IMG/VR virus record: IMGVR_UViG_3300003086_000114
Coordinates: 33,073-97,072 of that record
DNA from: a virus
Lineage: Duplodnaviria > Caudoviricetes
Length of the DNA: 64,000 nucleotides
Direction: 5' to 3' (one strand)
Below, piece by piece: positions 5,336 to 34,890 of the stretch. The notes beneath the pieces are model-generated. The model saw only the letters and a list, made by a program, of their open reading frames with translations, was not told where the DNA came from and searched no databases. Made by a program: the position numbers and the translations under genes. The number at the start of each line of letters is the position of its first letter. The first letter of the stretch is position 1.

Positions 5336-5345
5336 CACTAATAAT

Positions 5346-6419: not shown

Positions 6420-6422
6420 ATA
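6415..6422 (+). promoter_or_regulatory. Late-promoter-like CATAAATA heading the 6450-16410 gene run
   Basis: TAAATA core in the only intergenic gap ahead of a tightly coupled operon. Confidence 0.55.
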
Positions 6423-6449
6423 TGCTAAACATGTACTTAAAGGTCAAAA

Positions 6450-6878: not shown

Positions 6879-6890
6879 AGAGAGAACATA

Positions 6891-8635: not shown

Positions 8636-9702
8636 GATATAATGAGTTTAAGTTAACCGAAACACATACATCAGGTGCACCGATGCCTGCTGATAATGAT
8701 ATTGAGGCATGGGGAGAATACTTCGCAGATCTAGGTGCTAGTACTAGCAGTGGTGTTAAAAGAGTATTGCCTAAACCTGAAGGAACATATACTAAATCTC
8801 CAGAACCAAAAAAGCCATCAAAGTATACAACGCCAGGAAAAAATATAGGATCCTATGCAGACTGGGGTATTACTGGGTACGCAGATGCGCATGGCTGGAA
8901 TGTAGACGGTGGAGAAGAAGAGGCGAAAAAGATCAAAACAAGCATAGGCAAAGTAGCTAAAGACTACGGTGTTGAGCCAAGAGCGTTTACAGCTAACCAA
9001 CAAGGAAGTATGAAATTGTCTAAAAATCAATCGGACCACCGGGTAGGTGCCGGACAAAGCATGACTTATGCAAAGCATAATCCTTATATGTCTGCTGTAG
9101 ATTTAACAGATCTAGAGAAACACATGTCACATGAACTAGCACATCACAATAGTATGAATTTTGCCGCGGTAGATGCAGAAGGTGGCATGAGAATTGCAGA
9201 TCCTGATAACATAGCGCATAAGTCAGAACACAATTATATCACAGGATTCGGCTTAGAAGATGCAGAAGGTAAGTATCTAACAATGGCAAACAAGTACATT
9301 AGCGATGATGGTACGTTAGATGAAAAAGGATTTAGACAAGAACTATACAAAAACGTGTTTGGCAGAAAAACGAATAAACAACGTCCAGAACTAAAGCATG
9401 CGTTAGCTACTACTGTATCGTATATATTAACAGATAAGAGCTTACTTAAACACGCAAGTGATAATACATGGCTTAAAGATGAAGCTGATTATCAATATGA
9501 TCCTGAAGAACTATGGGCAAGGGGATTCGCTGAATTCAGTAGAATGAAACGTCTAGACCCAAAAGAACGATTCAGAGATAAAGATATAATTACACCAGAG
9601 ACTTATAATAAAATACAAAAAATGATGGACACTATTAAAGTCAAGCACGGCAACGTAATGACTAAAGGTAGAGGAAGAGACACAGGAACAAGAACGTCAT
9701 GA
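8632..9702 (+). CDS. Zincin-like (HExxH) metallopeptidase-domain protein with leader MRYNEFKLTE
   Basis: MSHELAHH and PEELWARGFAE; long near-identical blocks shared with 7502-8635. Confidence 0.65.
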   Translation: MRYNEFKLTETHTSGAPMPADNDIEAWGEYFADLGASTSSGVKRVLPKPEGTYTKSPEPKKPSKYTTPGKNIGSYADWGITGYADAHGWNVDGGEEEAKKIKTSIGKVAKDYGVEPRAFTANQQGSMKLSKNQSDHRVGAGQSMTYAKHNPYMSAVDLTDLEKHMSHELAHHNSMNFAAVDAEGGMRIADPDNIAHKSEHNYITGFGLEDAEGKYLTMANKYISDDGTLDEKGFRQELYKNVFGRKTNKQRPELKHALATTVSYILTDKSLLKHASDNTWLKDEADYQYDPEELWARGFAEFSRMKRLDPKERFRDKDIITPETYNKIQKMMDTIKVKHGNVMTKGRGRDTGTRTS

Positions 9703-11111: not shown

Positions 11112-11344
11112 GACTAGAAGAAGTAAATTATAAAACTGGAATAGCACTACTTGAAGAGTTTGTACAATCAAGTTGGATTGCAGATCTTACGTACGACGAA
11201 GATATGGGATCTGTTATAATGACAACATTAGGCGGTGGGAGTTATGAAATTCCTGACGTGCCAAAAGAAGAATACGACGCATGGATAGCCGCTGGCAGTA
11301 AAGGAAAGCATTGGTGGAGCGACATAAAAGGAATTTACACATGA
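11108..11344 (+). CDS. KTSC domain protein with leader MRLEEV...LLEE
   Basis: SSWIADLTYD...GGSYEIPDVPKEEYDAWIAAGSKGKHW matches the KTSC pattern (SS.I..i.Yd...G..Y.Y..VP...y..l..A.S.G). Confidence 0.8.
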   Translation: MRLEEVNYKTGIALLEEFVQSSWIADLTYDEDMGSVIMTTLGGGSYEIPDVPKEEYDAWIAAGSKGKHWWSDIKGIYT

Positions 11345-14300
11345 ATCTTACAGAACGATTAAACAAAGAACTAAACAAATTATCAAACGTATTAGTAGAA
11401 ACTAGAACTCCTAACCAAATACTACTTGAGTTAAACGTAATTAACGCAGATGCTATTGATGTATTCTTAAATAGTATTGCTGAAAACTTACCAAGTGACG
11501 CACTAAAGAAGTGGCTTACATCAAGAGCTAAAAAGTACTTAATTAACAGTGAAGAAGATAATTCAGTTATTACACAGTTTAGTAATAAAGCTGAGCCGTG
11601 GATGAAAGCTAGACAGAAAGAAGGTGTAGCACTATACAGATTCAATCCAAGTACAACACTAAACAATAAACTTACACACATTGTAGATTGGCTAAAGGCC
11701 GCAAATGATACAGCAACCGGTATAACACCAGCAGACCAACAGTCAGTTACACGTGCAAAGAAAACACTCAAAGGTATAAACAACGTATCTATTACACAAG
11801 CGTTTGAGCATGCTGAGCTCTGGGTTAAAGAACTTAACTCAAAAGGTAGCAGTGAATTAGTTAGAGCGGCAGATGAAACTGGTCTAGTACCAGTATTAGC
11901 ACATGGTGAATTTAAATGGTACAGACTAACGGACCAAGAATGCTTATCCCGTGAAGGTGATGTAATGGGTCACTGTGTTGCTAGTTACGGCAATGATGTT
12001 AAAAAAGGCGATACAGTTATATACAGTCTTAGAGATAGACAGAATTATCCACACGTTACATTAGAAGTAAGAAGTGGGCAGTTAGAACAAGTAAAAGGCA
12101 AGCAAAACAGACCACCAGTAGAAAAGTACGAACGTGCTACTATTGAAATGTTGAACTCATTAGATGTAGAACCAAATAGAACTGGTATGAGCGACATTAA
12201 AGGTATGAACCTGTTGTACAATTCTGCCAATCACAGATATGGACATTTAAGAGATGTAGCAACTGCTATAACTACCATTGACGGTAAACTTAACATATTA
12301 GCAAATAGCGGATCAGGTCCTAGAAGTGGCACATCATACTACGGCTACGTTGGAGATAACGAAGTCTTTAGTATAGACTGGGACGGTTATGAGTACGAAC
12401 TTGGAACTAAGAACGAACCAGGTATTGCTGAAGTTAATATTGAAGGTGCAAAATACGCAGACAATCAGTACAAAATAGCAAAAGTAATTTCAATGCTGTC
12501 TACACAGCTAATGGATCCCGATACTGGAGAATTTGCGAATTGGAGTAGATATAATGCAGGTCGTCAAGGGTTAGGTGATTACCTTATATCATCTGAGAAT
12601 AATGATAGTCTTATTATGTACGAAGACCAAGGTGAAGAACTGTATGATGATCGTTCTGGCAATACACTACGAAAAGGCAGTAACATAACAACTAAAAGTT
12701 CATGGAGTTCAGATACCGGACCTATGATCATACATATAAAGAACGGTAAGTTAAAAGATAAAGTAAGTTACATTGAAGAAAATGGCAAGGAAATATGGAA
12801 AGCAGGTAGCTATTCAATAAGTGATGATTCATCAACAGTATTCGTTAACTACATTAATTCATTAAACCCAGACGCTAGACCTTACCTTGCTGATTATGGT
12901 ATCTACCAAAATGTAGACAATCGCTCAGCATCAGAAACAATTTCAAAGGTAGCGAAACCGTTAGCAAAGTCTAGAAAGGTTGCACTGTATCATACAACAA
13001 GTCCTAGTATATATAGCACTCCAGAGCAAACAAAACGTTATGTTGTAGCACTAGAAAATCAACAACTCATCAACATAAATTACGGTGATGATGCTAGCGC
13101 CGGTACTGACTTTAGACTTGATTGGCCAGATGAACAAACTGTTACAGATGTCGCCAAGCATATAGTAACTGTTCTCAATAAGGTGAACTTAGGTGAGAAA
13201 TTCCCGTTCAATGATGCAGGTAAGGTATCAGCAATGGAATCTGTAGGTATTTACTTCAGTAGAGATAAACGAATATTCACTACAGACCATAGTGTAGCTG
13301 GTGAGCACTACGAACACGAAGACAAGAACTTTACTGCAATCAGAACGCACAACCATTTAAAAATATATAACGAAGGTATTGAGCTTGCACAGTTTGGACT
13401 ACAAACAGCTTACAGAGACGGCAAGACAATAGCAACAATTACAGAGTTCACAGTTAAAGATCGTTTACAGTTACTAAATAATCTAAGGAAAGTAGCTGAC
13501 ACATTAAACAGCTATAACGTACTAAGAGATAAAGACGGGTACGGATCACAAGAAAGAGCGAACAAGGCAATGACTGCTATTGGCTTTAAGTATGGTCCCG
13601 CAAAAGGTTGGACTGGTATGAAGACTTCGCCAACATCAGAATCAACCGGCGAAGCTGAAGGTACACCATACGAAGTCTTTAAGTTCAGAAAAGAATACTT
13701 ACTTAAGAATTCAGAAACAGGTAATTTAATAGCTACCCTGCCAACAGTTAAAGAAAGCGGATACGACAAAGATGTACTCTATAATATCGAAATGGAGTCA
13801 ATTAAAGGCAGTGCAATTGATATAGTTGCTCAAGTCATAATGGACTTATCAGAAAAAGGTGAGATACACCTAAGACTAAACGATGACGAAGAAGACTTAA
13901 AGTTCAAAATGAAAGACAAAGGCTTCTTCGTGTCAGGCGGAAAATTAGAAAAGATATCAGACGTACATCCAACTAGTGTTGTGTCAAAAGGACCAGGTGG
14001 TACCTGGGTAGAAGAAGCATATACTACAGCAGTAGATGAAAAGATACATAACATGCAGGAGAAAGCTGACACCGGCGGATACACAACACGAGATCAGAAC
14101 CCTGTGAGCAAGTACCATAGAGGCAGAATGGCCGCAACAGGCGAGCAGTACACGCTATATAACAATAAAAAACCAGTTTTAAGAGTTATAGCAAGAAATC
14201 AAGATATTCAAATAATCTACAGCATCAATAATAGTACAGCCAAGTACGATAAAGAGAGTGTAGCTGTTGGTGTCGAAACTAACAGAGATTTATTAATGTC

Positions 14301-14682
14301 AATACATAAAAAGACATTAGACAGATTAGTAAAGAAATTGAACTTGAATGCAGGCAAGTACCTAACAGACATGGGCTTGTATGTAGCTAAAGGCAAGCTT
14401 TCAAGCATAGCTGATAATCCAAAGCTTAAAGGCTTTATGGATGGTGAGATTGTATACGAAGATGGACATAAGTGGAAAAAATCTAGATTCAATAAATGGG
14501 TATTATCAATGCCTAATGAACAAGGACGCGAAGTGGACCTTATAACAGTAGAAGTCAACGAGGGCGGTATTGAAGAGATTAGATTTAGAGATAGAAAAGT
14601 TAAACGACAAACTAAACTATACAGAGCGTTTCTTAACGATATGATGGATATCAGTGACGAACTATACGGACTAGATGAATGA
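11341..14682 (+). CDS. Large (~1113 aa) protein with PcfJ-like domain
   Basis: LSREGDVMGHCVASY...IYSLRD...PHVTLEV...QVKGKQN. ATG 11341 overlaps the upstream stop (ATGA) and is preferred to 11311. Confidence 0.7.
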   Translation: MNLTERLNKELNKLSNVLVETRTPNQILLELNVINADAIDVFLNSIAENLPSDALKKWLTSRAKKYLINSEEDNSVITQFSNKAEPWMKARQKEGVALYRFNPSTTLNNKLTHIVDWLKAANDTATGITPADQQSVTRAKKTLKGINNVSITQAFEHAELWVKELNSKGSSELVRAADETGLVPVLAHGEFKWYRLTDQECLSREGDVMGHCVASYGNDVKKGDTVIYSLRDRQNYPHVTLEVRSGQLEQVKGKQNRPPVEKYERATIEMLNSLDVEPNRTGMSDIKGMNLLYNSANHRYGHLRDVATAITTIDGKLNILANSGSGPRSGTSYYGYVGDNEVFSIDWDGYEYELGTKNEPGIAEVNIEGAKYADNQYKIAKVISMLSTQLMDPDTGEFANWSRYNAGRQGLGDYLISSENNDSLIMYEDQGEELYDDRSGNTLRKGSNITTKSSWSSDTGPMIIHIKNGKLKDKVSYIEENGKEIWKAGSYSISDDSSTVFVNYINSLNPDARPYLADYGIYQNVDNRSASETISKVAKPLAKSRKVALYHTTSPSIYSTPEQTKRYVVALENQQLININYGDDASAGTDFRLDWPDEQTVTDVAKHIVTVLNKVNLGEKFPFNDAGKVSAMESVGIYFSRDKRIFTTDHSVAGEHYEHEDKNFTAIRTHNHLKIYNEGIELAQFGLQTAYRDGKTIATITEFTVKDRLQLLNNLRKVADTLNSYNVLRDKDGYGSQERANKAMTAIGFKYGPAKGWTGMKTSPTSESTGEAEGTPYEVFKFRKEYLLKNSETGNLIATLPTVKESGYDKDVLYNIEMESIKGSAIDIVAQVIMDLSEKGEIHLRLNDDEEDLKFKMKDKGFFVSGGKLEKISDVHPTSVVSKGPGGTWVEEAYTTAVDEKIHNMQEKADTGGYTTRDQNPVSKYHRGRMAATGEQYTLYNNKKPVLRVIARNQDIQIIYSINNSTAKYDKESVAVGVETNRDLLMSIHKKTLDRLVKKLNLNAGKYLTDMGLYVAKGKLSSIADNPKLKGFMDGEIVYEDGHKWKKSRFNKWVLSMPNEQGREVDLITVEVNEGGIEEIRFRDRKVKRQTKLYRAFLNDMMDISDELYGLDE

Positions 14683-15029
14683 GATTTAGAGAACTACTAA
14701 CAGAATCAACTGAAATAGAGTTCGTCTGTGCTAACCCAGATTATTGCGATGCTACTTCTCCCAAAAGACAACGTAGTCTATTTAAAGCATTAAAAAGTGT
14801 TCCTGGAGTAGTTGTATATAAACAAGACTTTGGTGCTGGAGAAGTTAGCATGGCAGTAATACTAAAATCGTCTGCTAATAAACACACAGTAAACCAAATA
14901 AACCAAATAGCATCAGACAACGGTGTTGCAATTGACCTTACATCTGCTGTAAGTGATATGTTCGTCGACAGTATATATACTGGTGATTTAGAAAATTTAG
15001 CAGATTGGTACGATAGCGATGAGATTTAG
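14679..15029 (+). CDS. Hypothetical protein with leader MRFRELLTE
   Basis: ORF track; ATGA overlap; leader motif. Confidence 0.65.
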   Translation: MRFRELLTESTEIEFVCANPDYCDATSPKRQRSLFKALKSVPGVVVYKQDFGAGEVSMAVILKSSANKHTVNQINQIASDNGVAIDLTSAVSDMFVDSIYTGDLENLADWYDSDEI

Positions 15030-16410
15030 AGAACTACTAGAATACAAAAGAGATAAAACTGCTACCAACTTAGGTGAACAGTTAATTAACACGATAGTGC
15101 AATCTGTACAAAGTCCGATTGGCAACACTAGTCAAACACTGCAACGTATTATTCCAGGAATAACTTACTTTTCTCCTAGTTCGAGACCAGATGATGCAGA
15201 ATTGCAAGAAATCCATGCGACACTAGGCGCTCATATACATAACGTATTACAGTTCTTTGAAGATGCTGACCCTACACCAAACAAGCAATACACTGAATGG
15301 ATTATTAGACGATACATAGACGGTGGCATTAGATACTTAGAAGATGTGGATAGCACAGTAGCAGAGAACTTAGCAATATATCACGAACTTAAAACGCGCA
15401 GAATGATACCACCTGAGTTAATGGATATCGGCAAAATTAAAGGTGATACTGGTAATAACAGTGTAGCAAGATTCTTCCGTAATGTATATAACATATACAG
15501 AGATCTACCAGAGCAACAAGAGAAGATAGACAAAGGTTCATCTAAAGAAGTCTACGAAGATGATGAAATAAGAATAGTACATCCAGCAGATCAAAAAGCG
15601 GCTTGTTATTACGGGCAAGGAACACAATGGTGTACTGCTAGTACTAAGTCACGTAACTACTTCAAAGATTATAACGATGATGGTGCATTGTATATTATAT
15701 TACCAAAGAAGCCAGGTCACAGAGGCGAGAAGTACCAACTGCATTTTGAGACTGACTCATACATGAATGAGAACGATGTGGGTGTGCCGTTATATTCTTT
15801 AATAAAAAGGTGGCCTCAACTACACAAAATATTTAAAGGAAATATATTTAATGCATATCGTGGTGATGAGGATATCCCAACAGGTAATCCATCTATACTA
15901 TTAGCAGAACCAGAGACTTTAGAGAATTGGTTAGACATTACAGCAGACAAGATAGTACCAAAGATTGAGAAAGAGCTAGCAAGCCCAACAAGTGTTTATA
16001 ATTGGTTAGATTTGTCTCAGATAGAAGATAGTATACAAAGCGGTCTTGATAGCCCGGACTTAACTAAAGACCAAAAATTCACAATGGAGAAAAAGTTAGA
16101 TGGATTGTATAGCATTATTAATCACATCTCAGAAAATAAACAAAATACTACTAACGTAATTTATCCTCTAATTGACGACTTAGACGAACTTGAAAAGTCA
16201 TTAAAAAATCATGGCGATGCAACAAGTACTATGATAAACAATATTCCTAGAATGTTCCCTGGTATGGATACTATGATGAATGACATAGGTGATAGATATG
16301 TAACTAGCGATCTTAGAATTAAAGTTATGAATAAGGTGTGGTACGCTCTTACTAGAGAACTAAACCCTTACTTTGCTAACGCATGGGATCCATTATCTAA
16401 GTATCGTTAG
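15019..16410 (+). CDS. GTQWCTA-motif (PcfJ-related) protein with leader MRFRELLE
   Basis: DPTPNKQYTEW, AACYYGQGTQWCTA and EKYQLHF; paralogue of 9699-11111. Confidence 0.6.
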   Translation: MRFRELLEYKRDKTATNLGEQLINTIVQSVQSPIGNTSQTLQRIIPGITYFSPSSRPDDAELQEIHATLGAHIHNVLQFFEDADPTPNKQYTEWIIRRYIDGGIRYLEDVDSTVAENLAIYHELKTRRMIPPELMDIGKIKGDTGNNSVARFFRNVYNIYRDLPEQQEKIDKGSSKEVYEDDEIRIVHPADQKAACYYGQGTQWCTASTKSRNYFKDYNDDGALYIILPKKPGHRGEKYQLHFETDSYMNENDVGVPLYSLIKRWPQLHKIFKGNIFNAYRGDEDIPTGNPSILLAEPETLENWLDITADKIVPKIEKELASPTSVYNWLDLSQIEDSIQSGLDSPDLTKDQKFTMEKKLDGLYSIINHISENKQNTTNVIYPLIDDLDELEKSLKNHGDATSTMINNIPRMFPGMDTMMNDIGDRYVTSDLRIKVMNKVWYALTRELNPYFANAWDPLSKYR

Positions 16411-20391: not shown

Positions 20392-21702
20392 ATGATTGAT
20401 CTAGTACAAGTTGCGTTACTTGGTGCAATATTTGGCATAGTAGCTGGATTAATTCCAGGCGTTGGCATATTAGTTGTCATAGCAATGTTGTACCCATTCC
20501 TGTTAGACTTTCAACCCGTAGAGCTGTTGCTATTTTATATCTCTATGGTTAGCAGTGCTCAATACTTCGGCAGTGTAACAGCAATATACCTAGGACTTGC
20601 GGGCGAAGCCAGCAGTTTCCCTGCGGTAATCGAAGGCTACGCATTGTCTAAGCAAGGCAAAGGACAACTGGCGATATTTTTAACAGGTGTTGGCAGTTTC
20701 ATCGGCACAATGTTTGGCTTGGTTTTTATTGCGGTATTAAGTGTATCAGTCTTAGATTTGACACTTACTACCATGGAAAAAATGATTTTATTCATGGCAG
20801 TTGGTCTTAGTTTAATTCTTACAACAAAGAATAAATTACTAACAGATCTAAGTTTAATTCTTTTAGCAATTGGTTTAAGTCATATTGGAGTTAGTATAAA
20901 CAGCAATGTACCTTTAGTCCATTTTGATCTAATGTTTTTAAGTCAAGGTATTAGTTACTTTACATTAGCGGCAGGATTACTTTGCATGAAAGAAGTTATG
21001 CATACTGAGAAAACCAACACAAAAATTATTATTGTAGAAAACTACAATGCTATTAAAGAGTTAGTAAAGCACAAATATTCAATAATCAGAGGCAGTATAA
21101 TTGGTAGTATCGGTGGTATGTTACCAGGGTTAACCACAATTAGTGCTAGTCATTTGGCCTACGTAGCAGAAAAAAGAGTACATAAGGACACATACACAAA
21201 AGGCAACACACATTGTTTAACTAGTAGCGAAACTGCTAACAACAGCGGTAGTATTACCCAACTGTTTCCATTGTTAATGTTTGGTATACCGATAACAGGA
21301 AGTGAAGCCATACTATACCAACTGCTCGGAACGAAAGGGTGGGAAGGATCAGCAACACAGCCGTTAGCATTGTTAGCTAGCAATTGGTGGTTGATAGTAG
21401 GTGTTAACTTAATCATGTTAATCTTAGCAATTAGATTTTCAAGACACTTTGCAAAAATGATCCCTAGCAATGAGCTGTTGTTAAAGTTAGGAATCTTCTT
21501 TATTTTAGCAATCGTGGTTTACGTCGTAGGAGACAAACAAACTGGTTTTGGCTTGTTTAATTTGTTCTTGTTTTTGTTTGCAACAGGCATTGCATATCTA
21601 TTCCCTAAAGTAAACTTTTTACCTTTTGTATTTTGGATGTGCATAGGAGATATATGGCTAGAAAATTTTTACACTTTTTTACAACTTTATGAAATTGCAT
21701 AA
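20392..21702 (+). CDS. tctA: Tripartite tricarboxylate transporter large permease TctA
   Basis: Polytopic hydrophobic protein with GLIPG, QYFGSVTAIYLGLAGEASS...EGYALSKQGKG, GMLPG, SETANNS and FGIP. Confidence 0.85.
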   Translation: MIDLVQVALLGAIFGIVAGLIPGVGILVVIAMLYPFLLDFQPVELLLFYISMVSSAQYFGSVTAIYLGLAGEASSFPAVIEGYALSKQGKGQLAIFLTGVGSFIGTMFGLVFIAVLSVSVLDLTLTTMEKMILFMAVGLSLILTTKNKLLTDLSLILLAIGLSHIGVSINSNVPLVHFDLMFLSQGISYFTLAAGLLCMKEVMHTEKTNTKIIIVENYNAIKELVKHKYSIIRGSIIGSIGGMLPGLTTISASHLAYVAEKRVHKDTYTKGNTHCLTSSETANNSGSITQLFPLLMFGIPITGSEAILYQLLGTKGWEGSATQPLALLASNWWLIVGVNLIMLILAIRFSRHFAKMIPSNELLLKLGIFFILAIVVYVVGDKQTGFGLFNLFLFLFATGIAYLFPKVNFLPFVFWMCIGDIWLENFYTFLQLYEIA

Positions 21703-24166: not shown

Positions 24167-24194
24167 CTGATAATAAAAATATTTGGATTATGCA

Positions 24195-27100
24195 ATGAAG
24201 CCTGTACTTATACCTGACATCGTTTACACTGATTTACGTGAAACTCTAAACAAACTAGACAACGTACTAGTAGAGAAACAAACAAAGTTCTCTTTTAAGA
24301 CACTTAATCGTTGGGGTCCATGGGCATCTGATGTTGCTGATTACATGACTAATCAATTAGATGTTAGTCAAGGTGTTCCGAGCGACGTACAAACATTCGT
24401 AAAGCAGTCAACGTTTAGTGATGAGAAGAAACAGCAGATACTAAATGATCCGTACTACGCCAGGAACCTAGCTCAAGTCGCTAGTGCAGTAAACAGAGGC
24501 GACATGGCACCTTTAGGCAATACAGGGCCACAACATTCAGGTGGTACTAGTTTTGGTGGCGGTTCTGGTGTAGGGTTTGAAGGATTATCTAAAGAATTAA
24601 AAAAACTACAAGACATAGTAAAGCGAAAGAAGAGTTCTGATGAAGGCGGTACTAAGGCGTTTTATACACCGTTACCTCCAGAAGATTTAGAATGGGTGTT
24701 ACACGGTCAACCTGCTGATCCAATTCCCCAGACAGGTTCAGTAACTGATAAAGTTGATCCAACATGGGACGGGCAAACAGCAGATGAACTTAGGGCAGAA
24801 TTAGATAAGTCTTACGGCGGCCGTGAAAATTGGGAAGGAACAAAAGAATTTGAATCTCCAGAGACAGAACCTAGCGAATATGTACCATCGGACAAAGACG
24901 ACTATAAAAGTTCGTATGAAGCAGAACTAGGACTTGATACTGGCGAACTTACTACTAGACCTTCTCCGCAAGCTAGAGCAGACGACGAGTCAGATACTAG
25001 AAGCGACTACGAAAAAGAACTAGATAGAAGAGTTAAACAGCAACTTAAAAAGTCTCCAGAAGAGGAGTTCGCTAGATGGTTAAAGCGTTTTGCTTTCACA
25101 GACGATGAAACATTCGCTGACTACGACGAAGAGTTTATTAGATCAAGTTTCGGCGATCAAGCCGCAGAGGCATTTTTAGCATCGCAACAAGAGAGAGAAT
25201 CATTTATAGATACCGAAGTAGATACTGCTCCAGAGACAGAAGTAGATACTGCTCCAGAGACAGAAGTAGATACTGCTCCAGAGACAGAAGTAGATACTGC
25301 TCCAGAGACTGAGGTCGATGATGAGTACTCATTAGGTGATAGTGAAGATTATTCACTTGACACGTGGAAAAAACTGTTCAAGTTCATGGATGCAGATCAT
25401 TTTGCTAATTTTGATGAAGACTTTCTCAGGGCAAACTATAGTGACACAGCCGCTGATGCATTCTTAGCTACTGAAAGACCTATCCCAGATCCAGTTCCAG
25501 ATCCAGAGCCTTCAACTGAAGATATCGCTTCATGGAAAAAACATTACACTGATATGGATCCTGAGGATCTTGAGACAATTACCCCTGAAGATGCTAAAGC
25601 TTACGGACCTGCATCAGTTAAGGCATACGTAGATGCTAAATTAGAAAAGGTACAAAAAACAAAAGACGTAGCAGATGCTTATACGGACGCCGATACACAA
25701 GATACTGATGATAACGTTGTAACCCAAGATCCACCTGAATCAGAATACTATGAATGGTTAAAGCGTTTTGCTAATACAGATGACGAAACATTCAATAGCT
25801 TTGATACAGATTTTATTAGATCAAATTTTGGCGATCAAGCCGTAGAGGCATTTGAAGTTGCACAACAAGAGAGAGAATCATCCACAGAGCCAGAGGTTGA
25901 TTTAACACCAGAGCCTGAAGTAGAAGTAGAGCCTGAAGTAGAAGTAGATACTAACGATGAAAGATTTGCAAAATGGAAAAAACGCTTTGCCGATACAGAC
26001 GATGAAACATTTTCTGAGTATGATGTAGAATTTATTAAATCAAACTTTGGCTCCGATGCGGCACAAGCATTTTTAGCATCGCAACAAGAGAGAGCAGGAA
26101 TTGTAGAGCCTGAAGTAGATACTAGCGATGCAGATCTAAACAGAATAAGGGACCTAGCTGGAGTACTAACTCCAGAGCCACAAGCTAAAGCAGATGAGTT
26201 TGAGACTGCACCAGTATTAACAACAGAATTGCCAGACTTCAGCACAATGACGCAGGAAGAATTCGTAGCTTGGGAAGACAAAGCAATGGACAACTTCATT
26301 GACAATTGGGAGTCAAATCCTAGGTACGCTGGCATGTCAGAAGAAGAAGCAAATGATCAGTTCAATAGTGATTTAGTAAACTTTGAAGAAAGAGTAGGTA
26401 AAAAAGAACCACAAGCTAAAGCAGACGACACTGATATAGACGCAGACATAGACGATCTAAATACAGCAATAGATGACTTAGATAAAACACAATCTATAAC
26501 AACTGATCCGTACGACACTTCAAACTTCGGACACATGACACAAGAAGAATTTGATAGGTGGGAAGAAAGTTTCATAGACGCAGAACTTGATAAAATGTAT
26601 GATAATGATGGTAACCAAGTAATAAGCGATGAAGATTTTGATGCTAATTTAGATACTAACACAACTAAACTCTACCAGCAGTACCAAAAAGCTCGTGAAG
26701 AACAACCAGAAGTCGATGCACAAAAAGTATTTACTGATGCTAACGTAGATCAACAAATGCAAATGCCAGGTGAAAGTACGGCAGACTTCTTAACACGAAC
26801 AACCAAGATTGATGCAGATAACAGAGCTAAACAAGCACAACAAAAAATAGACGATCAGGCAGTACTCGATGCATTAGAAAAAGCAGGCAGAAGTAGTAAA
26901 GCAAAAGGCGTGTTTAGAAAACCTATGGCAAAAGATGATACTCCTGTTAATAAAACGTATACATCAGCTAAACCAGAAACTGATGTCAGTAGAGCAATCG
27001 ACACCATATCAGATGCTATTCCAGATAGTGTTAAAGATACAGCAGGCGATGTCTGGGCTGATGTAAAAGGTTACTTCCAAGGTAGTGAAGCAGATAAAGA

Positions 27101-27689
27101 TCTCGGTACAGCCAAAGATGCAATTGGAGATGCATACGATTATGTTACAGGTGATGAGCTTGGTAACGATGCTTCAAGATTAAAGAAATACATACTGAGT
27201 ACACAATCACGTAAAGATGCTCAAGCCAAAGGTGAAGAGCATAGAGGGGCAATAGATAAGAAGGTTACTGATACTAAAACAGGTATAACTGACTACTTTA
27301 CCAAAGGTGGACTTACCGGTGACTTAGGTGATGCGGCTGATTGGATTGGTGATGCGTATACTAAACAAATGGACCACATTGATAAACAATTTAAATACGC
27401 AGATAAAGTAAACAAAGAAAGAGAAGAGTTTTTAGCTAAAAGCAAAGCAACGTTCGCAAGAGAAAAAGCGGCAAGTCAACCTAAAAAAGATGCAGAAGCT
27501 AAGAGAAGAGCTGAAATCGAAGCTCAAGATCCTAGAGGATTTTGGGAGAAAACCAAATCTGGTTGGGATAAAGGCTTTAGAGATGCGGCTAGACAAAAAG
27601 CAGAAAGAGAAGCTATATATAAGAAACAACGTGAAGGCCAGCCTAAAAAACCAGAGAATCCAAGTTGGTTCGATAGCTTATGGGACTAG
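24195..27689 (+). CDS. Very acidic repeat-rich ~1164-aa protein, putative internal/ejected virion protein
   Basis: Five ~45-aa W-K-K/R-F helical repeats, (EVDTAPET)x4, PQAKAD motifs and an amphipathic/basic C-terminus. ATG 24195 preferred over TTG 24183. Confidence 0.6.
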   Translation: MKPVLIPDIVYTDLRETLNKLDNVLVEKQTKFSFKTLNRWGPWASDVADYMTNQLDVSQGVPSDVQTFVKQSTFSDEKKQQILNDPYYARNLAQVASAVNRGDMAPLGNTGPQHSGGTSFGGGSGVGFEGLSKELKKLQDIVKRKKSSDEGGTKAFYTPLPPEDLEWVLHGQPADPIPQTGSVTDKVDPTWDGQTADELRAELDKSYGGRENWEGTKEFESPETEPSEYVPSDKDDYKSSYEAELGLDTGELTTRPSPQARADDESDTRSDYEKELDRRVKQQLKKSPEEEFARWLKRFAFTDDETFADYDEEFIRSSFGDQAAEAFLASQQERESFIDTEVDTAPETEVDTAPETEVDTAPETEVDTAPETEVDDEYSLGDSEDYSLDTWKKLFKFMDADHFANFDEDFLRANYSDTAADAFLATERPIPDPVPDPEPSTEDIASWKKHYTDMDPEDLETITPEDAKAYGPASVKAYVDAKLEKVQKTKDVADAYTDADTQDTDDNVVTQDPPESEYYEWLKRFANTDDETFNSFDTDFIRSNFGDQAVEAFEVAQQERESSTEPEVDLTPEPEVEVEPEVEVDTNDERFAKWKKRFADTDDETFSEYDVEFIKSNFGSDAAQAFLASQQERAGIVEPEVDTSDADLNRIRDLAGVLTPEPQAKADEFETAPVLTTELPDFSTMTQEEFVAWEDKAMDNFIDNWESNPRYAGMSEEEANDQFNSDLVNFEERVGKKEPQAKADDTDIDADIDDLNTAIDDLDKTQSITTDPYDTSNFGHMTQEEFDRWEESFIDAELDKMYDNDGNQVISDEDFDANLDTNTTKLYQQYQKAREEQPEVDAQKVFTDANVDQQMQMPGESTADFLTRTTKIDADNRAKQAQQKIDDQAVLDALEKAGRSSKAKGVFRKPMAKDDTPVNKTYTSAKPETDVSRAIDTISDAIPDSVKDTAGDVWADVKGYFQGSEADKDLGTAKDAIGDAYDYVTGDELGNDASRLKKYILSTQSRKDAQAKGEEHRGAIDKKVTDTKTGITDYFTKGGLTGDLGDAADWIGDAYTKQMDHIDKQFKYADKVNKEREEFLAKSKATFAREKAASQPKKDAEAKRRAEIEAQDPRGFWEKTKSGWDKGFRDAARQKAEREAIYKKQREGQPKKPENPSWFDSLWD
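25215..25310 (+). repeat. 24-bp coding tandem repeat x4 (EVDTAPET)
   Basis: GAAGTAGATACTGCTCCAGAGACA three times plus a fourth copy ending GAGACT. Confidence 0.9.
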
Positions 27690-27690
27690 T

Positions 27691-28023
27691 ATGAAGATAA
27701 CTGAAATAACAGACAAGAGCAGATTAGACGAATTTGGTCCATTACTTAATGTACCTCTGGGAGTGCAAGTATTAGCTAGTAGACTTGCTCCTTATGTTCC
27801 TGGTGCATTAGCTGTTGCACACGGAGCACTAAAGTTTGGTCATCCAGCTCTTGGTACTGCAGGCGTGACAGCTAACACTGTGGGAAATACTATTGATAGT
27901 ATTGATACTGCAACTGATACTGCGGCTAGCTACTTTGATGACGAAGGTAGACAAGCAGTGGCTAAAGCAACTGATGATGATATTCCGCAGTTAGATCCCG
28001 AAATAGATATACCGAGTGAGTAA
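27691..28023 (+). CDS. Protein with leader MKITEITDKSRLDE followed by a hydrophobic/amphipathic segment
   Basis: True start is ATG 27691, immediately after the upstream stop; the track start 27490 overlaps the previous gene. Confidence 0.7.
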   Translation: MKITEITDKSRLDEFGPLLNVPLGVQVLASRLAPYVPGALAVAHGALKFGHPALGTAGVTANTVGNTIDSIDTATDTAASYFDDEGRQAVAKATDDDIPQLDPEIDIPSE

Positions 28024-28052
28024 AAGTAACTTTTTCTACGGTAAATAGTAGA

Positions 28053-28355
28053 ATGAGTACTAAATTTGTAAAAATATTATTTGATTTGCACTGTAATTGG
28101 GAAGGTATTCCTCCTGACTATAGAGTATATTTAAATGATGAGTTATTTACAGAAAGAACATATAGATTTGAAGATCCAGTCTACTTAACAGAAATACTAC
28201 AAGTACAAGCTAAACCAGGAACATATAGATTTAAGCTAGAGAAGGTAGGTCCGCAAATAAGTAAATTCAGTATATCAAATACTAGAGTAGAATACGGACC
28301 AGGTGAGATAGTAGATAAACATACATTTAAAATATTAGAAGAAGATGAGAGCTAA
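28053..28355 (+). CDS. Hypothetical beta-rich protein (PPDYRVYLNDELFTERT)
   Basis: ORF track; GTAAATA at 28041-28047 lies 5 nt upstream. Confidence 0.65.
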   Translation: MSTKFVKILFDLHCNWEGIPPDYRVYLNDELFTERTYRFEDPVYLTEILQVQAKPGTYRFKLEKVGPQISKFSISNTRVEYGPGEIVDKHTFKILEEDES

Positions 28356-28932
28356 CGAATTTATAACCGAAAACCCATTCATAACCAGGGGTTCGCCGTA
28401 CCTAAAAGATATACCGCATATAACTGACAAGATATCTCAGTTCTTTCAAACGTATACAGAGCTCGATTACGATGGCATACGTAATAACTTAGGCATTGAC
28501 GGTAATCGCAGGCCACTAGCAAAAGCAGATGGCGATGATATTCCAATAATAGATTTTGATGATGATGACGGCCGCGACGAAGATTTTGATTGGGATGATG
28601 ATATTCCGCAGTTAGATCCCGAAGTTAGTAGTATACCGATTGATAAGAGTAAAGAAAAAGTAGTATTGCCTATAATATCTAATCCATATGGGTTTCCCGC
28701 TAAAAATGAAAATAAATTACGTGAATTTGATTCTAAACTATTCTACAATAATTTATACAATAATATATTAAATAATTGGGATTCTATGCGGCGCGATGAT
28801 TGGGATGTCTTTAAGAATCGCAAGTCTGAAAAGAAACCAGAGAAAACAGAGAACCCAGAGAAAACAGAGAACCCAGAGAAACCAATTAAACACGATGAAT
28901 GGAACTTGCCTAAAGGTCAAGCATCTGTGTAG
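28345..28932 (+). CDS. Hypothetical protein with leader MRANEFITE, acidic centre and PEKTEN repeats
   Basis: ORF track; leader motif. Confidence 0.6.
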   Translation: MRANEFITENPFITRGSPYLKDIPHITDKISQFFQTYTELDYDGIRNNLGIDGNRRPLAKADGDDIPIIDFDDDDGRDEDFDWDDDIPQLDPEVSSIPIDKSKEKVVLPIISNPYGFPAKNENKLREFDSKLFYNNLYNNILNNWDSMRRDDWDVFKNRKSEKKPEKTENPEKTENPEKPIKHDEWNLPKGQASV

Positions 28933-28945
28933 AGGAGAAATTAAT

Positions 28946-29164
28946 ATGCGTTTACATGAATTTTTAAACTTAGAAGAAGAAGTTAAATGGTGGAACCCCA
29001 CTACATGGCTTGACGAACCAAAGTTTAATCCTGACATTACTCCTATGAAAAAAGGATATAAAAAGATGAAAAAGAAAATGTCAACAGACCCTGAATACGC
29101 GAAGAAAATTCTGTCTGGCAATAAGATTAAAAAATCCACACGTTTAGACGATATCATAACATAG
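28946..29164 (+). CDS. Small basic protein with leader MRLHEFLNLEEE
   Basis: ATG 28946 preceded by GAGGAG; the track start 28796 overlaps the previous gene. Confidence 0.65.
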   Translation: MRLHEFLNLEEEVKWWNPTTWLDEPKFNPDITPMKKGYKKMKKKMSTDPEYAKKILSGNKIKKSTRLDDIIT

Positions 29165-29172
29165 GTGAACTA

Positions 29173-29481
29173 ATGAAAATAAATGAAATAACAGATAACA
29201 ACCGGCTAGATGAAGCTTTGCCTGCATTACCATTAGTTTTAGGCACGGTGGCGGCTGGAGTTGCTAAGAATGCTCCGCGCATTGTAAGAGCAGTTAAGAA
29301 CATGTTTAAAAAAGCACCCGATTCAGCGAAGAAAAAAGGCATTACTAAAGGCGACAGCAGAGTAGATATTAATAGAAAATCAAGTACAGAATTTGATTCT
29401 TTACCGTTACCAAAGAAAGTAACTGGCAACGTATACGGTGATCCTAAAATTAATAAATGGAAAAATGACATTTTCTATTAA
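29173..29481 (+). CDS. Basic protein with leader MKINEITDNNRLDE and an amphipathic peptide
   Basis: LDE|ALPALPLVLGTVAAGVAKNAPRIVRAVKNMFKK. Confidence 0.65.
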   Translation: MKINEITDNNRLDEALPALPLVLGTVAAGVAKNAPRIVRAVKNMFKKAPDSAKKKGITKGDSRVDINRKSSTEFDSLPLPKKVTGNVYGDPKINKWKNDIFY

Positions 29482-29505
29482 TAGTAAATTAAAATATCAA
29501 TCAAA

Positions 29506-30243
29506 ATGAGATCACATGAATTCACACAATTAGATGAAGCTTTGCCATTTTTCGCAGGTGCGGCGGCTGCGGCTGCGAAGTACGGACCAAAAGCTTTAAA
29601 AGCTCTTAAAAGCTTTACAAAGAAAAAAGTAGATCCTGCGTCGATTGGGCAAGGCGTGGCTGCCACCGCAACTGGTGTAGGTTTAGCTGGAATGGCAGTT
29701 GATAAGTTATCAAGTGAGAAGACACCAAACGGTATAGATTACGACAAAGCCTACAACGCGTTTAATGCCGCTGAGATGTCAAGTGTTGATGCAGGTAAGG
29801 ACGGCTCAGGACATTACATACGTACACACGGTGCTAAAAAAGGCACGCAAGCATATAAAACAGGTTCAAGCGCATACGGTCCTACACAGTTAAACAAAAC
29901 AACAGCCCAAGACTTCACTACACGATATCCAAAAGCATTTAAAGGGCAAGAGGATTACGCAAAGAAGTACATACATCAAGGTTCGCATTTTAACAAACAT
30001 AAAAGAGGAACTGATTCAAAATATAAGTATGGTGGTAAGGGTGACTTATCAGGGACCGAATACCATGCACCATATAAAAAGTTCAATCAAACTATTATGC
30101 GACAAATGGGCAACGAGCTTAAAAGTAAAAACCCACAATCGGGTATCAAAGACTTAGTACAAAGATGGCGTGGTAAATCAGCCTCTGAAGATCCTAGGTA
30201 CTACGACGAGTTCTTTAATAGATATAATCAACAACAACCTTAG
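29506..30243 (+). CDS. Putative virion lytic transglycosylase (lysozyme-like) with leader MRSHEFTQLDE and amphipathic N-terminus
   Basis: Helix ending AAEMSS (candidate catalytic Glu), then SSAYGPTQLNKTTA, resembling the SLT GAxGLMQLMPxTA motif. Confidence 0.55.
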   Translation: MRSHEFTQLDEALPFFAGAAAAAAKYGPKALKALKSFTKKKVDPASIGQGVAATATGVGLAGMAVDKLSSEKTPNGIDYDKAYNAFNAAEMSSVDAGKDGSGHYIRTHGAKKGTQAYKTGSSAYGPTQLNKTTAQDFTTRYPKAFKGQEDYAKKYIHQGSHFNKHKRGTDSKYKYGGKGDLSGTEYHAPYKKFNQTIMRQMGNELKSKNPQSGIKDLVQRWRGKSASEDPRYYDEFFNRYNQQQP

Positions 30244-30245
30244 TC

Positions 30246-30252
30246 ATAAATA
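30246..30252 (+). promoter_or_regulatory. Late-promoter-like ATAAATA
   Basis: Lies 5 nt before ATG 30258. Confidence 0.6.
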
Positions 30253-30257
30253 CACTT

Positions 30258-30413
30258 ATGAAAGTACGCGAAATAATGGAAACAACATCAGGCGGTATCG
30301 CAACAGTATCAGCGCCATTGGGCGGAACTATTAAGAGGGGCAATCCTAGCATTTACCCTACTGTATCGAAATCTAAGAAAAAGTACGCTAATAGCGTAAA
30401 GGCTAAGAAATGA
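30258..30413 (+). CDS. 51-aa basic protein with leader MKVREIME
   Basis: Translated by hand (MKVREIMETTSGGIATVSAPLGG...KAKK); its stop overlaps the next ATG (ATGA). Confidence 0.7.
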   Translation: MKVREIMETTSGGIATVSAPLGGTIKRGNPSIYPTVSKSKKKYANSVKAKK

Positions 30414-30787
30414 AACTATTTGAATTATTCGAAGACGACAAGGAAAATAGTCAAGACGTAAAAATCCGTGATCCTTTAGCTAGACGCTTAATGGATAAGG
30501 CACGAGCCCAGTATGCGTACACAGACTCAGATATGGAAGCTTTTGTTAAGCTAATGGCTGATGAGCAAGAACGTGATAAGAAAAACATTAACAGCTTAGA
30601 AGATAGCGTCGCCCACGCTGACGAAGTAAACAAACAGCAGTCACGACAACTTGCAATACTAAAACAACAAGAAAAAGAAGATCGTAGATCACTTGATCAA
30701 CATCGTGCTAAAATAGATGCAATCAAAGCAGAAATCGACAGCATAGAAGATAGAACAGACTTGTTATCGTTAAATTCACAATATTAA
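30410..30787 (+). CDS. Coiled-coil protein with leader MKLFELFE
   Basis: ORF track; heptad-like C-terminal half. Confidence 0.65.
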   Translation: MKLFELFEDDKENSQDVKIRDPLARRLMDKARAQYAYTDSDMEAFVKLMADEQERDKKNINSLEDSVAHADEVNKQQSRQLAILKQQEKEDRRSLDQHRAKIDAIKAEIDSIEDRTDLLSLNSQY

Positions 30788-32187: not shown

Positions 32188-34890
32188 ATGGCATATATTG
32201 ACGCAATTTACGATCACGAGCATGACAAGATACATGTGGTAGAACGAGTAGATGGAAAACGTAAATTAATAATTTACAACCCTAAGTACGAATTTTATTA
32301 TGACGATCTTGCAGGCAAGTACCTTAACGTATTTGGTAACCCTGTAAGTAAAGTTAAGGCAAGAAACAAAGGTGAATTTCGTAAAGAAGTAGCTATTCAT
32401 GATAACAAGAAGACATACGAAAGTGATATTAATGTTGTTAACAAGTGCCTAGAAGAGAACTATAAAAATGCCGATTCACCGGAATTACATACAATATTCT
32501 TTGATATTGAAGTAGATTTTGATTTAGAGAAAGGCTTTAGTCCGCCTAAAGATCCGTTCAATCCAGTTACAGCAATTGCACTTTATCTATCATGGACTAA
32601 GCAACTTATATGTCTTGCAGTGCCACCCAAGGGCATGCTACGTGAAAAGGCAGATGAGATTGCGGACAAGTTTGAGAACACTATAATCTGCGACACCGAG
32701 AAAGAAATGTTAATAGCGTTTCTAGACTTAATTGAAGATGGCGATATATTAAGCGGTTGGAACAGTGAAGGATTTGATATACCGTACATGGTTAATCGCA
32801 TTACTAGAGTACTAAGTAAAAACGATACAAGACGCTTTTGTTTATGGGATAAGTTCCCTAGAAAGCGTAAATTTGAACGTTACGGGGCAGAGCAAGAAAC
32901 GTACGACTTACACGGCAGGGTACACGTTGACTATATGCAACTGTACAGAAAGTACACATATCAAGAAATGCATTCTTATTCACTAGATGCTATATCAGAG
33001 TATGAGCTAGGTGAAACTAAGGTAGCATACGCAGGTACATTAGATCAATTGTACAATCAAGACTTTGAAAAGTTCATTGACTATAACAGACAAGATACAA
33101 TGCTGTTAGCGAAGATGGAAGAGAAGCTTAAATTCTTAGAACTAGCAAATGAATTAGCACATTCAAACACAGTATTAATACCAGCTACAATGGGTACTGT
33201 TGCTACTGTAGAACAAGCTATCATTAACGAAGCACATGAACGTGGTATGGTAGTGCCAGATAGGATTAGATCCGAAGGCAACACACAAGCCGCTGGTGCG
33301 TATGTAGCAAAACCTAAAAAAGGAGTACATAAATGGATAGGATCAGTTGATATCAACAGCTTGTATCCATCTGTTATTAGATCGTTAAATATGGCTCCTG
33401 AAACTATCATAGGACAATTCAGACCTATAGAAACTGACAAACATGTTGCAAGTAAAATGGGAGATCAATTCCGCAACGGTAAAAAGTATGTAGGTGCTTC
33501 ATTTGCAGGTGCATGGGAAGGACTATTTGGCTCATTTGAATACACAGCAGTAATGGAAAGAAGAATTGACTTTAGTGTTACTGTTGATTGGATTAACGGT
33601 GACGAAACACAACACTCAGCAAAAGAGATACATGATATTATTTTTAACCAAGGTAGCAACTGGTCATTAAGTGCTAACGGCACTATATTTTCATATGAAA
33701 AAGCAGGTATTATACCAGGACTATTAGAGCGTTGGTACGCAGAACGCAAAGAACTACAAGCAAAACTACGCAAATCAGAAACCGAAGAAGATAAATCGTT
33801 TTGGGACAAGAGACAGCTTATTAAAAAGATTCTATTAAACAGCTTGTACGGTGCAATTCTTAACCCGCACTGTAGATTCTTTGATAAGCGCATAGGACAG
33901 TCAACTACATTAACAGGTAGAGCAATTGCAAAACATATGGATGCACATGTTAACGAATGTTTAACTGGCGAATATGATCATGTAGGTAAATGTATTATAT
34001 ACGGTGATACAGACTCAGCATACTTTAGTGCTTGGCCAGTAATGGAAGAAGCAGTTGCAAATGGTGCTGAGTGGGATAAAGAAATAGCAACTGCATTGTA
34101 CGAAGGATTAGCAGATGATGTAAATGTTAGTTTTCCTCTTTATATGGAACGCGCACATAACGTACCTATAGAGAAAGGCGAAATTATTAAGTGTGGTCGC
34201 GAGATAACCGGCGAAAGTGGCTTATTCATTAAGAAGAAACGTTACGCTATAATGGTATACGACAGTGAAGGCACACGATATGATATAGATAATAAACCAG
34301 GCAAAGTTAAAGCTATGGGGTTAGATTTAAAACGCAGTGATACTCCTGTAGTAATACAAGACTTCTTGAAGGATATATTAAACGATTTGCTTACAAATAG
34401 AAATGAGGAGTTCATTATTGAGAAGATTATAGACTTTAAAAAAAGTTTTAAAGACAAGCCTAGTTGGGAAAAGGGATCACCAAAACGTGTTAATAAATTA
34501 ACACACTACCGTAAAATAATGCAGACCGAAAAAGTAGAGAGGGGAAAAGGTAACAAGGTACCTACTATTCCAGGACATGTTAGAGCGGCAGTAAATTGGA
34601 ATACCTTGCGTAACATGCACAGAGATAACTACAGTATAGAAATACAAGATGGCATGAAAACTGTTGTGTGTAAACTTAAAGATAATCCTCTAGGATTCAA
34701 AAGCATAGGTATTCCAACTGATGAAACTAATATACCAGAATGGTACAAAGAATTACCGTTCGACGACGAACTAATGGAAACAGCTCTTATTGATAAAAAA
34801 GTTGAAAATTTACTAGGTGTACTAAATTGGGATATATCTAGAAGAACAGACATTAGCAACACATTCCAACAGCTATTCGACTTCAAATGA
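32188..34890 (+). CDS. Family B DNA polymerase (T4 gp43-like) with 3'-5' exonuclease
   Basis: ExoI FFDIEV, ExoII GWNSEGFDIPY, ExoIII YNRQD; polymerase motifs DINSLYPS, KILLNSLYG, YGDTDS and KKRY. Confidence 0.97.
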   Translation: MAYIDAIYDHEHDKIHVVERVDGKRKLIIYNPKYEFYYDDLAGKYLNVFGNPVSKVKARNKGEFRKEVAIHDNKKTYESDINVVNKCLEENYKNADSPELHTIFFDIEVDFDLEKGFSPPKDPFNPVTAIALYLSWTKQLICLAVPPKGMLREKADEIADKFENTIICDTEKEMLIAFLDLIEDGDILSGWNSEGFDIPYMVNRITRVLSKNDTRRFCLWDKFPRKRKFERYGAEQETYDLHGRVHVDYMQLYRKYTYQEMHSYSLDAISEYELGETKVAYAGTLDQLYNQDFEKFIDYNRQDTMLLAKMEEKLKFLELANELAHSNTVLIPATMGTVATVEQAIINEAHERGMVVPDRIRSEGNTQAAGAYVAKPKKGVHKWIGSVDINSLYPSVIRSLNMAPETIIGQFRPIETDKHVASKMGDQFRNGKKYVGASFAGAWEGLFGSFEYTAVMERRIDFSVTVDWINGDETQHSAKEIHDIIFNQGSNWSLSANGTIFSYEKAGIIPGLLERWYAERKELQAKLRKSETEEDKSFWDKRQLIKKILLNSLYGAILNPHCRFFDKRIGQSTTLTGRAIAKHMDAHVNECLTGEYDHVGKCIIYGDTDSAYFSAWPVMEEAVANGAEWDKEIATALYEGLADDVNVSFPLYMERAHNVPIEKGEIIKCGREITGESGLFIKKKRYAIMVYDSEGTRYDIDNKPGKVKAMGLDLKRSDTPVVIQDFLKDILNDLLTNRNEEFIIEKIIDFKKSFKDKPSWEKGSPKRVNKLTHYRKIMQTEKVERGKGNKVPTIPGHVRAAVNWNTLRNMHRDNYSIEIQDGMKTVVCKLKDNPLGFKSIGIPTDETNIPEWYKELPFDDELMETALIDKKVENLLGVLNWDISRRTDISNTFQQLFDFK

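Follow-up and report, generated by a model that had tools for sequence, protein, structure and literature searches.

In the window (the whole stretch of 64,000 nucleotides analysed, which is the terminal 64 kb of a 97-kb viral contig with a CheckV completeness of ~28%), three neighbouring open reading frames (ORFs) of the plus strand, o27691, o29173, and o29506 (each named after its first nucleotide), encode proteins that begin with a short leader ending in L-D-E. The leader is a tag present on 16 ORFs of the window and, judging from the sequence, L-D-E is very probably a prohead-protease site that ends a cleaved head-targeting propeptide. Only these three members of the tagged set have a hydrophobic predicted new N-terminus. 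Our best reading, tentative as a whole and held with a little less than even confidence, is that they are head-internal proteins in which the cut would expose an end acting on the host inner membrane at ejection, o29506 thereby placing a wall-degrading-like domain. Seen directly in the sequences and models are the tag with its statistics and its likeness to T4 propeptides, the conserved layout, the amphipathicity, and the fold-level likeness to lytic transglycosylases. What we infer in this scheme is that the proteins are cut, packaged, and ejected and that they act on membrane or murein. The three proteins and their parts are the following:

27691–28023, plus strand: o27691, 110 residues; tag at residues 1–14, Gly/Ala/Pro/Leu-rich hydrophobic part at residues 15–63
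Distal part of o27691: variable patch at residues 64–86, then an acidic tail ending D-D-D-I-P-Q-L-D-P-E...
27691–27732, plus strand: predicted propeptide of o27691, with L-D-E at its end and Phe after the cut
29173–29481, plus strand: o29173, 102 residues; predicted mature form of 88 residues, isoelectric point (pI) 10.2, net charge +11
29173–29214, plus strand: predicted propeptide of o29173 (residues 1–14), with L-D-E at its end and Ala after the cut
29215–29265, plus strand: hydrophobic predicted new N-terminus of o29173 (residues 15–31), maximum 19-residue Kyte-Doolittle mean 1.43
29266–29340, plus strand: Lys/Arg-rich amphipathic helix of o29173 (about residues 32–56), hydrophobic moment (muH) up to 0.78, net charge +6
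29506–30243, plus strand: o29506, 245 residues; predicted mature form of 234 residues, pI 9.8, net charge +18
29506–29538, plus strand: predicted propeptide of o29506 (residues 1–11), with L-D-E at its end and Ala after the cut
29539–29628, plus strand: predicted new N-terminal region of o29506, Ala-rich and hydrophobic (residues 12–24), then Lys-rich and amphipathic (residues 25–41)
29635–29697, plus strand: second, weakly hydrophobic segment of o29506 (residues 44–64), Gly/Ala/Thr-rich, after K-K-K; 19-residue Kyte-Doolittle mean 1.31
29719–30240, plus strand: conserved C-terminal domain of o29506 (residues 72–245), with a predicted lysozyme/lytic-transglycosylase-like fold

The final residue of L-D-E is at position 14 in o27691 and o29173 and at position 11 in o29506. 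An earlier note on this DNA had pointed to three neighbouring ORFs with L-D-E followed at once by a hydrophobic segment, turning cationic in two of them. All three quoted peptides are present, and the Lys-rich helix is found in o29173 and o29506, with o27691 hydrophobic only. The ATG at 27691 lies inside a longer frame (27490–28023), 2 nucleotides past the stop of a gene for a 1168-residue protein; independent gene calls on near-identical contigs from vent metagenomes also start at the equivalent of 27691, giving 110 residues.

The shared tag and its likeness to T4 propeptides

The tag is defined by a start of the form M-[KR]-x-x-E-[FILVM] together with a [LIVF]-x-E site at residues 8–17. A scan of the contig for M-[KR]-x-x-E-[FILVM] returned 17 frames beginning this way; every one is on the coding strand, and almost every one coincides with a genuine ORF start. 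Sixteen tagged ORFs are within the window, where they form two clusters (5132–16410 and 27691–30787). In a crude gene set of 128 plus-strand ORFs, on which these statistics rest, 15–16 begin with the tag, as against 0.25 expected from composition (P ~4e-24), and the pattern occurs neither at internal Met residues (0 of 554) nor at the start of any minus-strand ORF. The [LIVF]-x-E site is present at residues 8–17 in every tag except that of the ORF at 6891, which ends T-K-E. Beyond the tag, the 16 proteins have unrelated mature parts of 43–460 residues, some of them basic and the others strongly acidic. As read from their sequences, the 16 ORFs are a candidate packaged proteome.

The leaders of o27691 and o29173 are near-identical as peptides, with different codons (AGA/CGG, TTA/CTA, GAC/GAT). 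Since the conserved residues of the tag are encoded by varying codons, selection acts on the peptide and not on the DNA; on this ground we discarded an explanation of the tag at the level of DNA.

The N-terminal sequences of phage T4 (NC_000866) offer the closest model. There, gp24 has a 10-residue propeptide ending L-R-E, gp22 and gp21 have I-A-E and L-I-E, respectively, at residue 9, and in gp23 an L-T-E occurs at residue 65, directly before the known mature Ala66. These four sites are built like the tags described here, and the known cuts in T4 are after Glu. The capsid-targeting sequence of T4 IPIII is quoted in PMC8442874. In T4, internal proteins are attached to the core by propeptides of 10–19 residues, which gp21 cuts off; targeting and processing depend on different positions (PMC9026906). 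Because the leader is built like such capsid-targeting propeptides, cleavage at head maturation is the best reading of L-D-E. In the cultured relative Vibrio phage 2.275.O, a gene of 80 codons with the same leader is found in the order portal, same-leader gene, acidic structural protein, gp21-like protease (phrog_207, 4e-58), scaffold, and major capsid protein, and the N-terminus of the scaffold ends L-K-E at residue 10.

Hydrophobic and amphipathic segments after the predicted cut

Over the first 15 predicted mature residues, the Kyte-Doolittle means of the three flagged proteins are +1.43, +1.74, and +1.11, compared with −1.78 to +0.61 in the other 13 tagged proteins. The three segments are rich in Ala, Gly, Pro, and Leu. 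The calculation of hydrophobic moments proposed in the earlier note gives a graded outcome, with o29173 strongly amphipathic, o29506 moderately so, and o27691 not. For the helix of o29173, the observed moment (0.78, net charge +6) is matched by none of 2000 shuffled sequences, and the same holds for its orthologue in contig L002 (muH 0.83, 0 of 2000). In o29506, the segment has a muH of 0.56 with a net charge of +6 to +7 (16 of 2000 shuffles as high) and, in a fused relative (L004), muH is 0.58 (23 of 2000). The high moment with positive charge that marks cationic amphipathic membrane-active helices is thus seen in o29173 and o29506, and not in o27691. The AlphaFold2 model of o29173 contains one long helix (residues 18–45), predicted with low confidence (predicted local distance difference test, pLDDT, 54).

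The earlier note had likened these segments to the frog peptides brevinin-1 and temporin. In Smith-Waterman alignments with brevinin-1 (the sequence used is confirmed to be present in the literature), 228 of 5000 shuffled sequences score as well as o29506, and ~1800 and ~2000 of 5000 do so for the other two proteins. By these shuffle tests the likeness is compositional, without significance beyond it, and kinship to brevinin-1 or temporin was rejected. The three N-terminal regions contain no Cys (hence no Cys box), no dibasic site, and no signal peptide, unlike the precursors of the frog peptides; their acidic piece is a tag of the phage type, and the precursors follow a different logic.

Orthologues and relatives

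The family of o29173 comprises eight aligned sequences with 47–78% identity, in which M1, K2, I3, N4, E5, T7, R11, D13, and E14 are invariant. The tag is the most conserved part, the basic helix is well kept, and the hydrophobic stretch drifts but keeps its character. A profile search with this family against 1.84 billion representatives returned only its own small family and one spurious tandem-repeat protein (P0027). In other marine contigs, a common gene order is observed, with an o28053-like gene, an o29173-like gene, an o29506-like gene, a gene of 48 codons, a gene of 124 codons, and the polymerase region.

In o27691, the comparison with the vent contigs (99.4% identical overall) reveals 16 replacement and 3 silent changes at 27880–27948 (codons 64–86). 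The first 63 residues and the codons that flank this patch of 23 codons are unchanged, and codons 64–86 are a local hypervariable or recombined patch.

Eighteen homologues share residues 72–245 of o29506. In one lineage (L004), an o29173-like N-terminus is fused to the o29506-type domain. In a distant relative (L010) that adjoins a terminase gene, an Ala/Gly-rich and Pro/Lys/Arg-rich N-terminus precedes the domain. N-terminal pieces of hydrophobic or basic character thus accompany the domain more than once, and their position relative to the cut is variable. A homologue of 321 residues (P0010), probably carried by the related viral contig L005, has an insertion of ~100 residues between the tag (ending E-F-T) and the start of the domain (N-E-D-H); the insertion falls exactly at the predicted cut site.

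The C-terminal domain of o29506

With the model of o29506, the highest Z values in an exhaustive VIA-align search are those of MltC (7.0), destabilase (6.2), MltE (6.1), Slt (6.1), MltF (5.8), Cj0843c (5.7), and Slt70 (5.5), that is, six lytic transglycosylases and the leech lysozyme destabilase, with 95–113 residues aligned and every Z below 8. Lower in the list are the phi6 lysin, phiKZ gp144 (Z 5.0), and the lambda lysozyme. A protein-atlas search leads independently to SLT clusters, both by structure (template-modelling score, TM, 0.51–0.53) and by features. The residue E90, nearly invariant among the homologues, terminates helix 79–91 of the model. It occurs at offset 22 in the aligned range, close to the catalytic Glu of MltE (E64, offset 20) and of Slt (E503, offset 24), a comparison of ranges rather than a residue-level alignment, with the catalytic positions taken from the titles of the structure entries.

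Sequence profiles are silent on this domain: a profile search of the PDB was empty, Pfam gave no match at E ≤ 10 across the 18 homologues, a Pfam SLT scan of the distant relatives in L009 and L010 was negative, and PF01464 and PF00959 have no match on the contig. From the model, residues 72–245 probably adopt a lysozyme/lytic-transglycosylase-like fold; we rate this as fairly likely and no higher, given Z values in the middle range and a model of partial confidence. A domain of this type in o29506 points to the cell envelope.

Proposed mechanism and alternative explanations

In the proposed mechanism, the tag would dock each precursor onto the scaffolding core of the prohead, with the acidic tag holding the hydrophobic segment away from the N-terminus. 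A gp21-type prohead protease would then cut L-D-E behind its Glu, releasing the acidic tag and leaving the mature protein with the DNA. In the three flagged proteins only, the cut would leave an Ala/Gly/Pro/Leu-rich hydrophobic N-terminus, followed in o29173 and o29506 by the Lys-rich amphipathic helix. After ejection through the tail, these segments would most likely bind to or insert into the host inner membrane, and that of o29506 would thereby position its lysozyme/lytic-transglycosylase-like domain at the cell wall. Taken separately, the action of the predicted mature N-termini on a membrane at infection is possible but somewhat doubtful. It is unlikely, though worth stating, that the prohead protease acts as an arming switch, turning inert precursors stored in the head into membrane-inserting peptides (one of them tethered to a lytic-transglycosylase-like enzyme) which on ejection would build or open an inner-membrane passage for a genome of >300 kb. 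Such an arrangement would be, by analogy, an ejectosome-like device with the logic of adenovirus protein VI, and we regard the analogy with the same reserve; devices of this kind are so far known from podoviruses.

Of the interpretation given in the earlier note, the part that stands is that L-D-E very probably ends a T4-like propeptide, that the layout is conserved, and that one cargo is probably lysozyme- or lytic-transglycosylase-like. The kinship to brevinin has to be abandoned, and so has the notion of three proteins forming a uniform class, since o27691 is neither cationic nor amphipathic.

Several observations weigh against an end that is unmasked by cleavage and acts at ejection. The 97-kb, ~28% complete fragment has no match to a gp21-like protease (PF03420, Peptidase_S77) and no capsid gene, so that we infer the gp21-type enzyme from relatives. 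In the three flagged proteins, all 19-residue windows are below 1.6, the rule of thumb for transmembrane segments, and the segments are therefore not classic membrane helices. In o27691, muH is only 0.31 (605 of 2000 shuffles as high), and the protein is acidic overall. Most homologues of o29506 consist of the tag and the domain, without a hydrophobic/cationic insert. In several others an in-frame hydrophobic stretch is located upstream of the tag, and the cut would discard it. This stretch covers the 16–21 residues directly before the Met of the tag (L006:829–876 and L015:3729–3791). Between these two contigs it differs by synonymous changes and a 6-nucleotide in-frame indel, which argues that it is probably translated; in L015 it begins with a TTG start, with a Shine-Dalgarno-like AAGGA. 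The variable position of the hydrophobic or basic pieces with respect to the cut weakens the rule of an unmasked N-terminus and leaves roles in export or at the assembly stage possible: the hydrophobic segment may have its role ahead of the cut or during export, and not at ejection. Lastly, the assignment to the lytic transglycosylases depends on middling Z values for a model with a mean pLDDT of 59.5, with no Pfam SLT match, and a Foldseek search of the same model against the PDB and BFVD gave nothing at E ≤ 0.001.

The three proteins could also be cleaved, head-packaged internal proteins without a membrane role, in which the Lys-rich helices bind and neutralise the packaged DNA and the hydrophobic stretch serves for binding to the scaffolding core or for self-association in the head. 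Such a role would suit the very basic mature forms of o29173 and o29506 (pI 10.2 and 9.8; net charge +11 and +18), the hydropathy under the transmembrane level, and the basic character of four further small tagged proteins that lack hydrophobic ends. It would also agree with the T4 internal proteins, which are highly basic and embedded in the DNA (PMC8442874, PMC3012670), a parallel that counts against a membrane function, since basic amphipathic segments could equally well bind packaged DNA. It leaves unexplained, however, why three proteins and their orthologues have a hydrophobic Ala/Gly-rich stretch precisely where the new N-terminus would be, and why one of them is linked to a lysozyme-like domain, and o27691 is acidic; we consider it improbable without dismissing it. 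In filamentous-phage coat proteins, an acidic–hydrophobic–basic layout occurs in which the basic end binds DNA, so the membrane and DNA readings are not exclusive.

The weakly hydrophobic Gly/Ala-rich segment beside a muralytic-like domain brings to mind a lysis cassette, in which o29506 is a SAR-type or membrane-tethered endolysin with residues 44–64 exported, o29173 and o27691 are holin- or antiholin-like, and L-D-E is irrelevant. Some homologues do have a probably translated N-terminal hydrophobic stretch directly before the domain, and the charges fit a coherent topology in which the acidic N-terminus and the domain are outside and the cationic loop is inside. Yet the tag matches T4 head propeptides and also heads 13 proteins without any hydrophobic segment, some of 350–470 residues; the N-terminal flank has a net negative charge, which Sec and SAR signals do not; several homologues are made of tag and domain without a hydrophobic part; and distant relatives of the domain adjoin terminase genes. 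A lysis cassette is therefore quite improbable. A degron or unfolding signal for the two-ring AAA+ protein of the phage (1076–3370), instead of a capsid address, would make sense of the position of this 764-residue protein's gene just upstream of the first tagged cluster, and N-terminal Met-basic-hydrophobic motifs are recognition signals for Clp. The invariant Glu 5 and the [LIV]-x-E ending are rather suited to protease-site logic and to T4 propeptides, and a tagged gene is found between the portal and protease genes in Vibrio phage 2.275.O, which makes this explanation very improbable. Finally, the stretches after L-D-E might be low-complexity sequence without specific function, the Ala and Lys runs being simple and the brevinin likeness not significant. 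We give this hardly any credence: the layout is kept across orthologues at 47–78% identity, the helical periodicity is above all 2000 shuffles in two orthologues, and residues 1–63 of o27691 are unchanged while the next 23 codons carry 16 replacements.

Source contig, lineage, and neighbouring genes

The family-B DNA polymerase encoded at 32188–34890 is 44–48% identical to those of five jumbo myophages (Sinorhizobium Phosso, Agrobacterium Atu_ph07, Vibrio 2.275.O, Pectobacterium CBB, and Cronobacter GAP32). The only long relatives of the flagged region are contigs from hydrothermal-vent metagenomes, 99.4% identical to it. We place the window within the genome of a jumbo myophage, marine (hydrothermal-vent) and uncultured, whose core is of the T4 type. 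The three flagged ORFs have no match among deposited phages, in nucleotide and protein searches, or in PHROGs, and Pfam gives for them two sub-threshold matches only, which we take as chance. The T4 late-promoter octamer TATAAATA, considered as a clue to timing, is depleted in the window (2 matches vs. 11.7 expected) and uninformative.

The other tagged ORFs of the window are the following:

5132–16410, plus strand: first cluster, nine tagged ORFs, with polar residues after the predicted cut in all
5132, 6450, 6891, 7502, 8632, 9699, 11108, 14679, and 15019, plus strand: starts of the nine ORFs of the first cluster
28345–28932, plus strand: tagged neighbour o28345, 195 residues, acidic; D-D-D-I-P-Q-L-D-P-E in common with o27691
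28946–29164, plus strand: tagged neighbour, 72 residues, basic
30258–30413, plus strand: tagged neighbour, 51 residues, pI 10.6; kept in relatives
30410–30787, plus strand: tagged neighbour, 125 residues; leader like that of the 80-residue protein of Vibrio phage 2.275.O

In the first cluster, the tagged ORF of 78 codons (11108–11344) overlaps the start of an ORF of 1123 codons (11311–14682) with a PcfJ-like domain (1e-10), and the two may be a single gene with a frameshift or a mis-called start. Just upstream of this cluster, the 764-residue two-ring AAA+ protein (1076–3370) is ClpA/B-like and matches phrog_4871, annotated "ATP-dependent protease" (2e-225).

Directly before o27691, the gene at 24183–27689 encodes a hyper-acidic protein of 1168 residues with tandem P-E-T-E-V-D-T-A repeats, four copies of a repeat of ~45 residues containing Trp/Phe, and P-Q-A-K-A-D motifs. 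The (L/V)-A-K-A-(D/T) motifs of o27691 and o28345 are related to P-Q-A-K-A-D, and the relative L002 has a different repeat set. Transporter genes are apparently phage-borne. An ORF of 436 codons (L012:2687–3997, in L012/L013) has a precomputed match to PF01970 (TctA), its near-identical copy in the window (20392–21702) has no PHROG match at 1e-5, and in L002 a gene for a DctP-type solute-binding protein (1823–2761) is inserted inside the tagged-gene cluster.

Comparison with known systems

In large myoviruses, the passage of the DNA through the inner membrane is still little understood. Provided that T4-type tags label the proteins that are packaged and injected, sequence alone would suffice to list those proteins for an uncultured jumbo phage, and the subset with hydrophobic or amphipathic new N-termini would then provide candidates for the membrane step that are short enough for synthetic peptides. 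Should the segments prove to serve in DNA binding or in lysis, the gain would still be a well-defined tag system from a lineage of vent phages.

The capsid-targeting propeptides of T4 (IPI–III, Alt, gp24, and gp22) are also short, with a Met-basic start, a core of Glu followed by an aromatic or aliphatic residue, and an [LI]-x-E end. As here, the residue after the cut is usually small and the carriers are unrelated and often small and basic. T4 relies on the gp21-type protease, and relatives of the present phage encode one beside the portal, scaffold, and capsid genes. There are differences: one third of the genome here already contains ~16 tagged genes, many more than T4 has; relative to the tag of IPIII, the conserved Glu is one position closer to the N-terminus; and three cargos have predicted hydrophobic new N-termini, one of them with a lysozyme-like domain. 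We know of no T4 internal protein with either feature.

In the Salmonella giant phage SPN3US, the ejection protein gp47 similarly has an N-terminal propeptide that the prohead protease cuts after Glu. The propeptide is longer (79–111 residues), and the A-x-E site is cut by a phiKZ-type protease. After the cut, the mature gp47 begins with a predicted transmembrane helix, for which its authors speculate on a contact with the host membrane (PMC5694885). Relative to gp47, which serves here as a parallel by description, the present segments have a lower hydropathy and lead into cationic amphipathic helices.

In the podovirus T7, which has no T4-type tag or maturation cleavage, gp16 (~1300 residues) is a head-internal protein with a lytic transglycosylase domain; it is ejected and passes into the envelope as infection begins. 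The corresponding domain of o29506 is supported at the level of the predicted fold only.

In adenovirus protein VI, the nodavirus gamma peptide, and the frog brevinins and temporins, a protease removes an acidic or masking pro-region and exposes a membrane-active peptide. The proposal made here would have this logic in common with them, without homology and, in contrast to the frog precursors, without a signal peptide, a Lys-Arg processing site, or a C-terminal disulphide box.

The muralytic domain of SAR endolysins (P1 Lyz, phage 21 R) comes after a segment that is weakly hydrophobic and rich in Gly and Ala. Residues 44–64 of o29506 resemble such a SAR domain in composition and in the positive flank (19-residue mean 1.31). 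On the other side, the segment of o29506 is internal, after an acidic tag and a cationic helix, and absent from most homologues; the tag is common to non-lysis proteins and the true N-terminus is acidic.

Tags of the T4 type are thus already known. Specific to the present lineage, in a contractile-tailed jumbo phage, is a conserved small subclass of tagged proteins with a hydrophobic or amphipathic end at the predicted cut, one member of which also has a lytic-transglycosylase-like domain.

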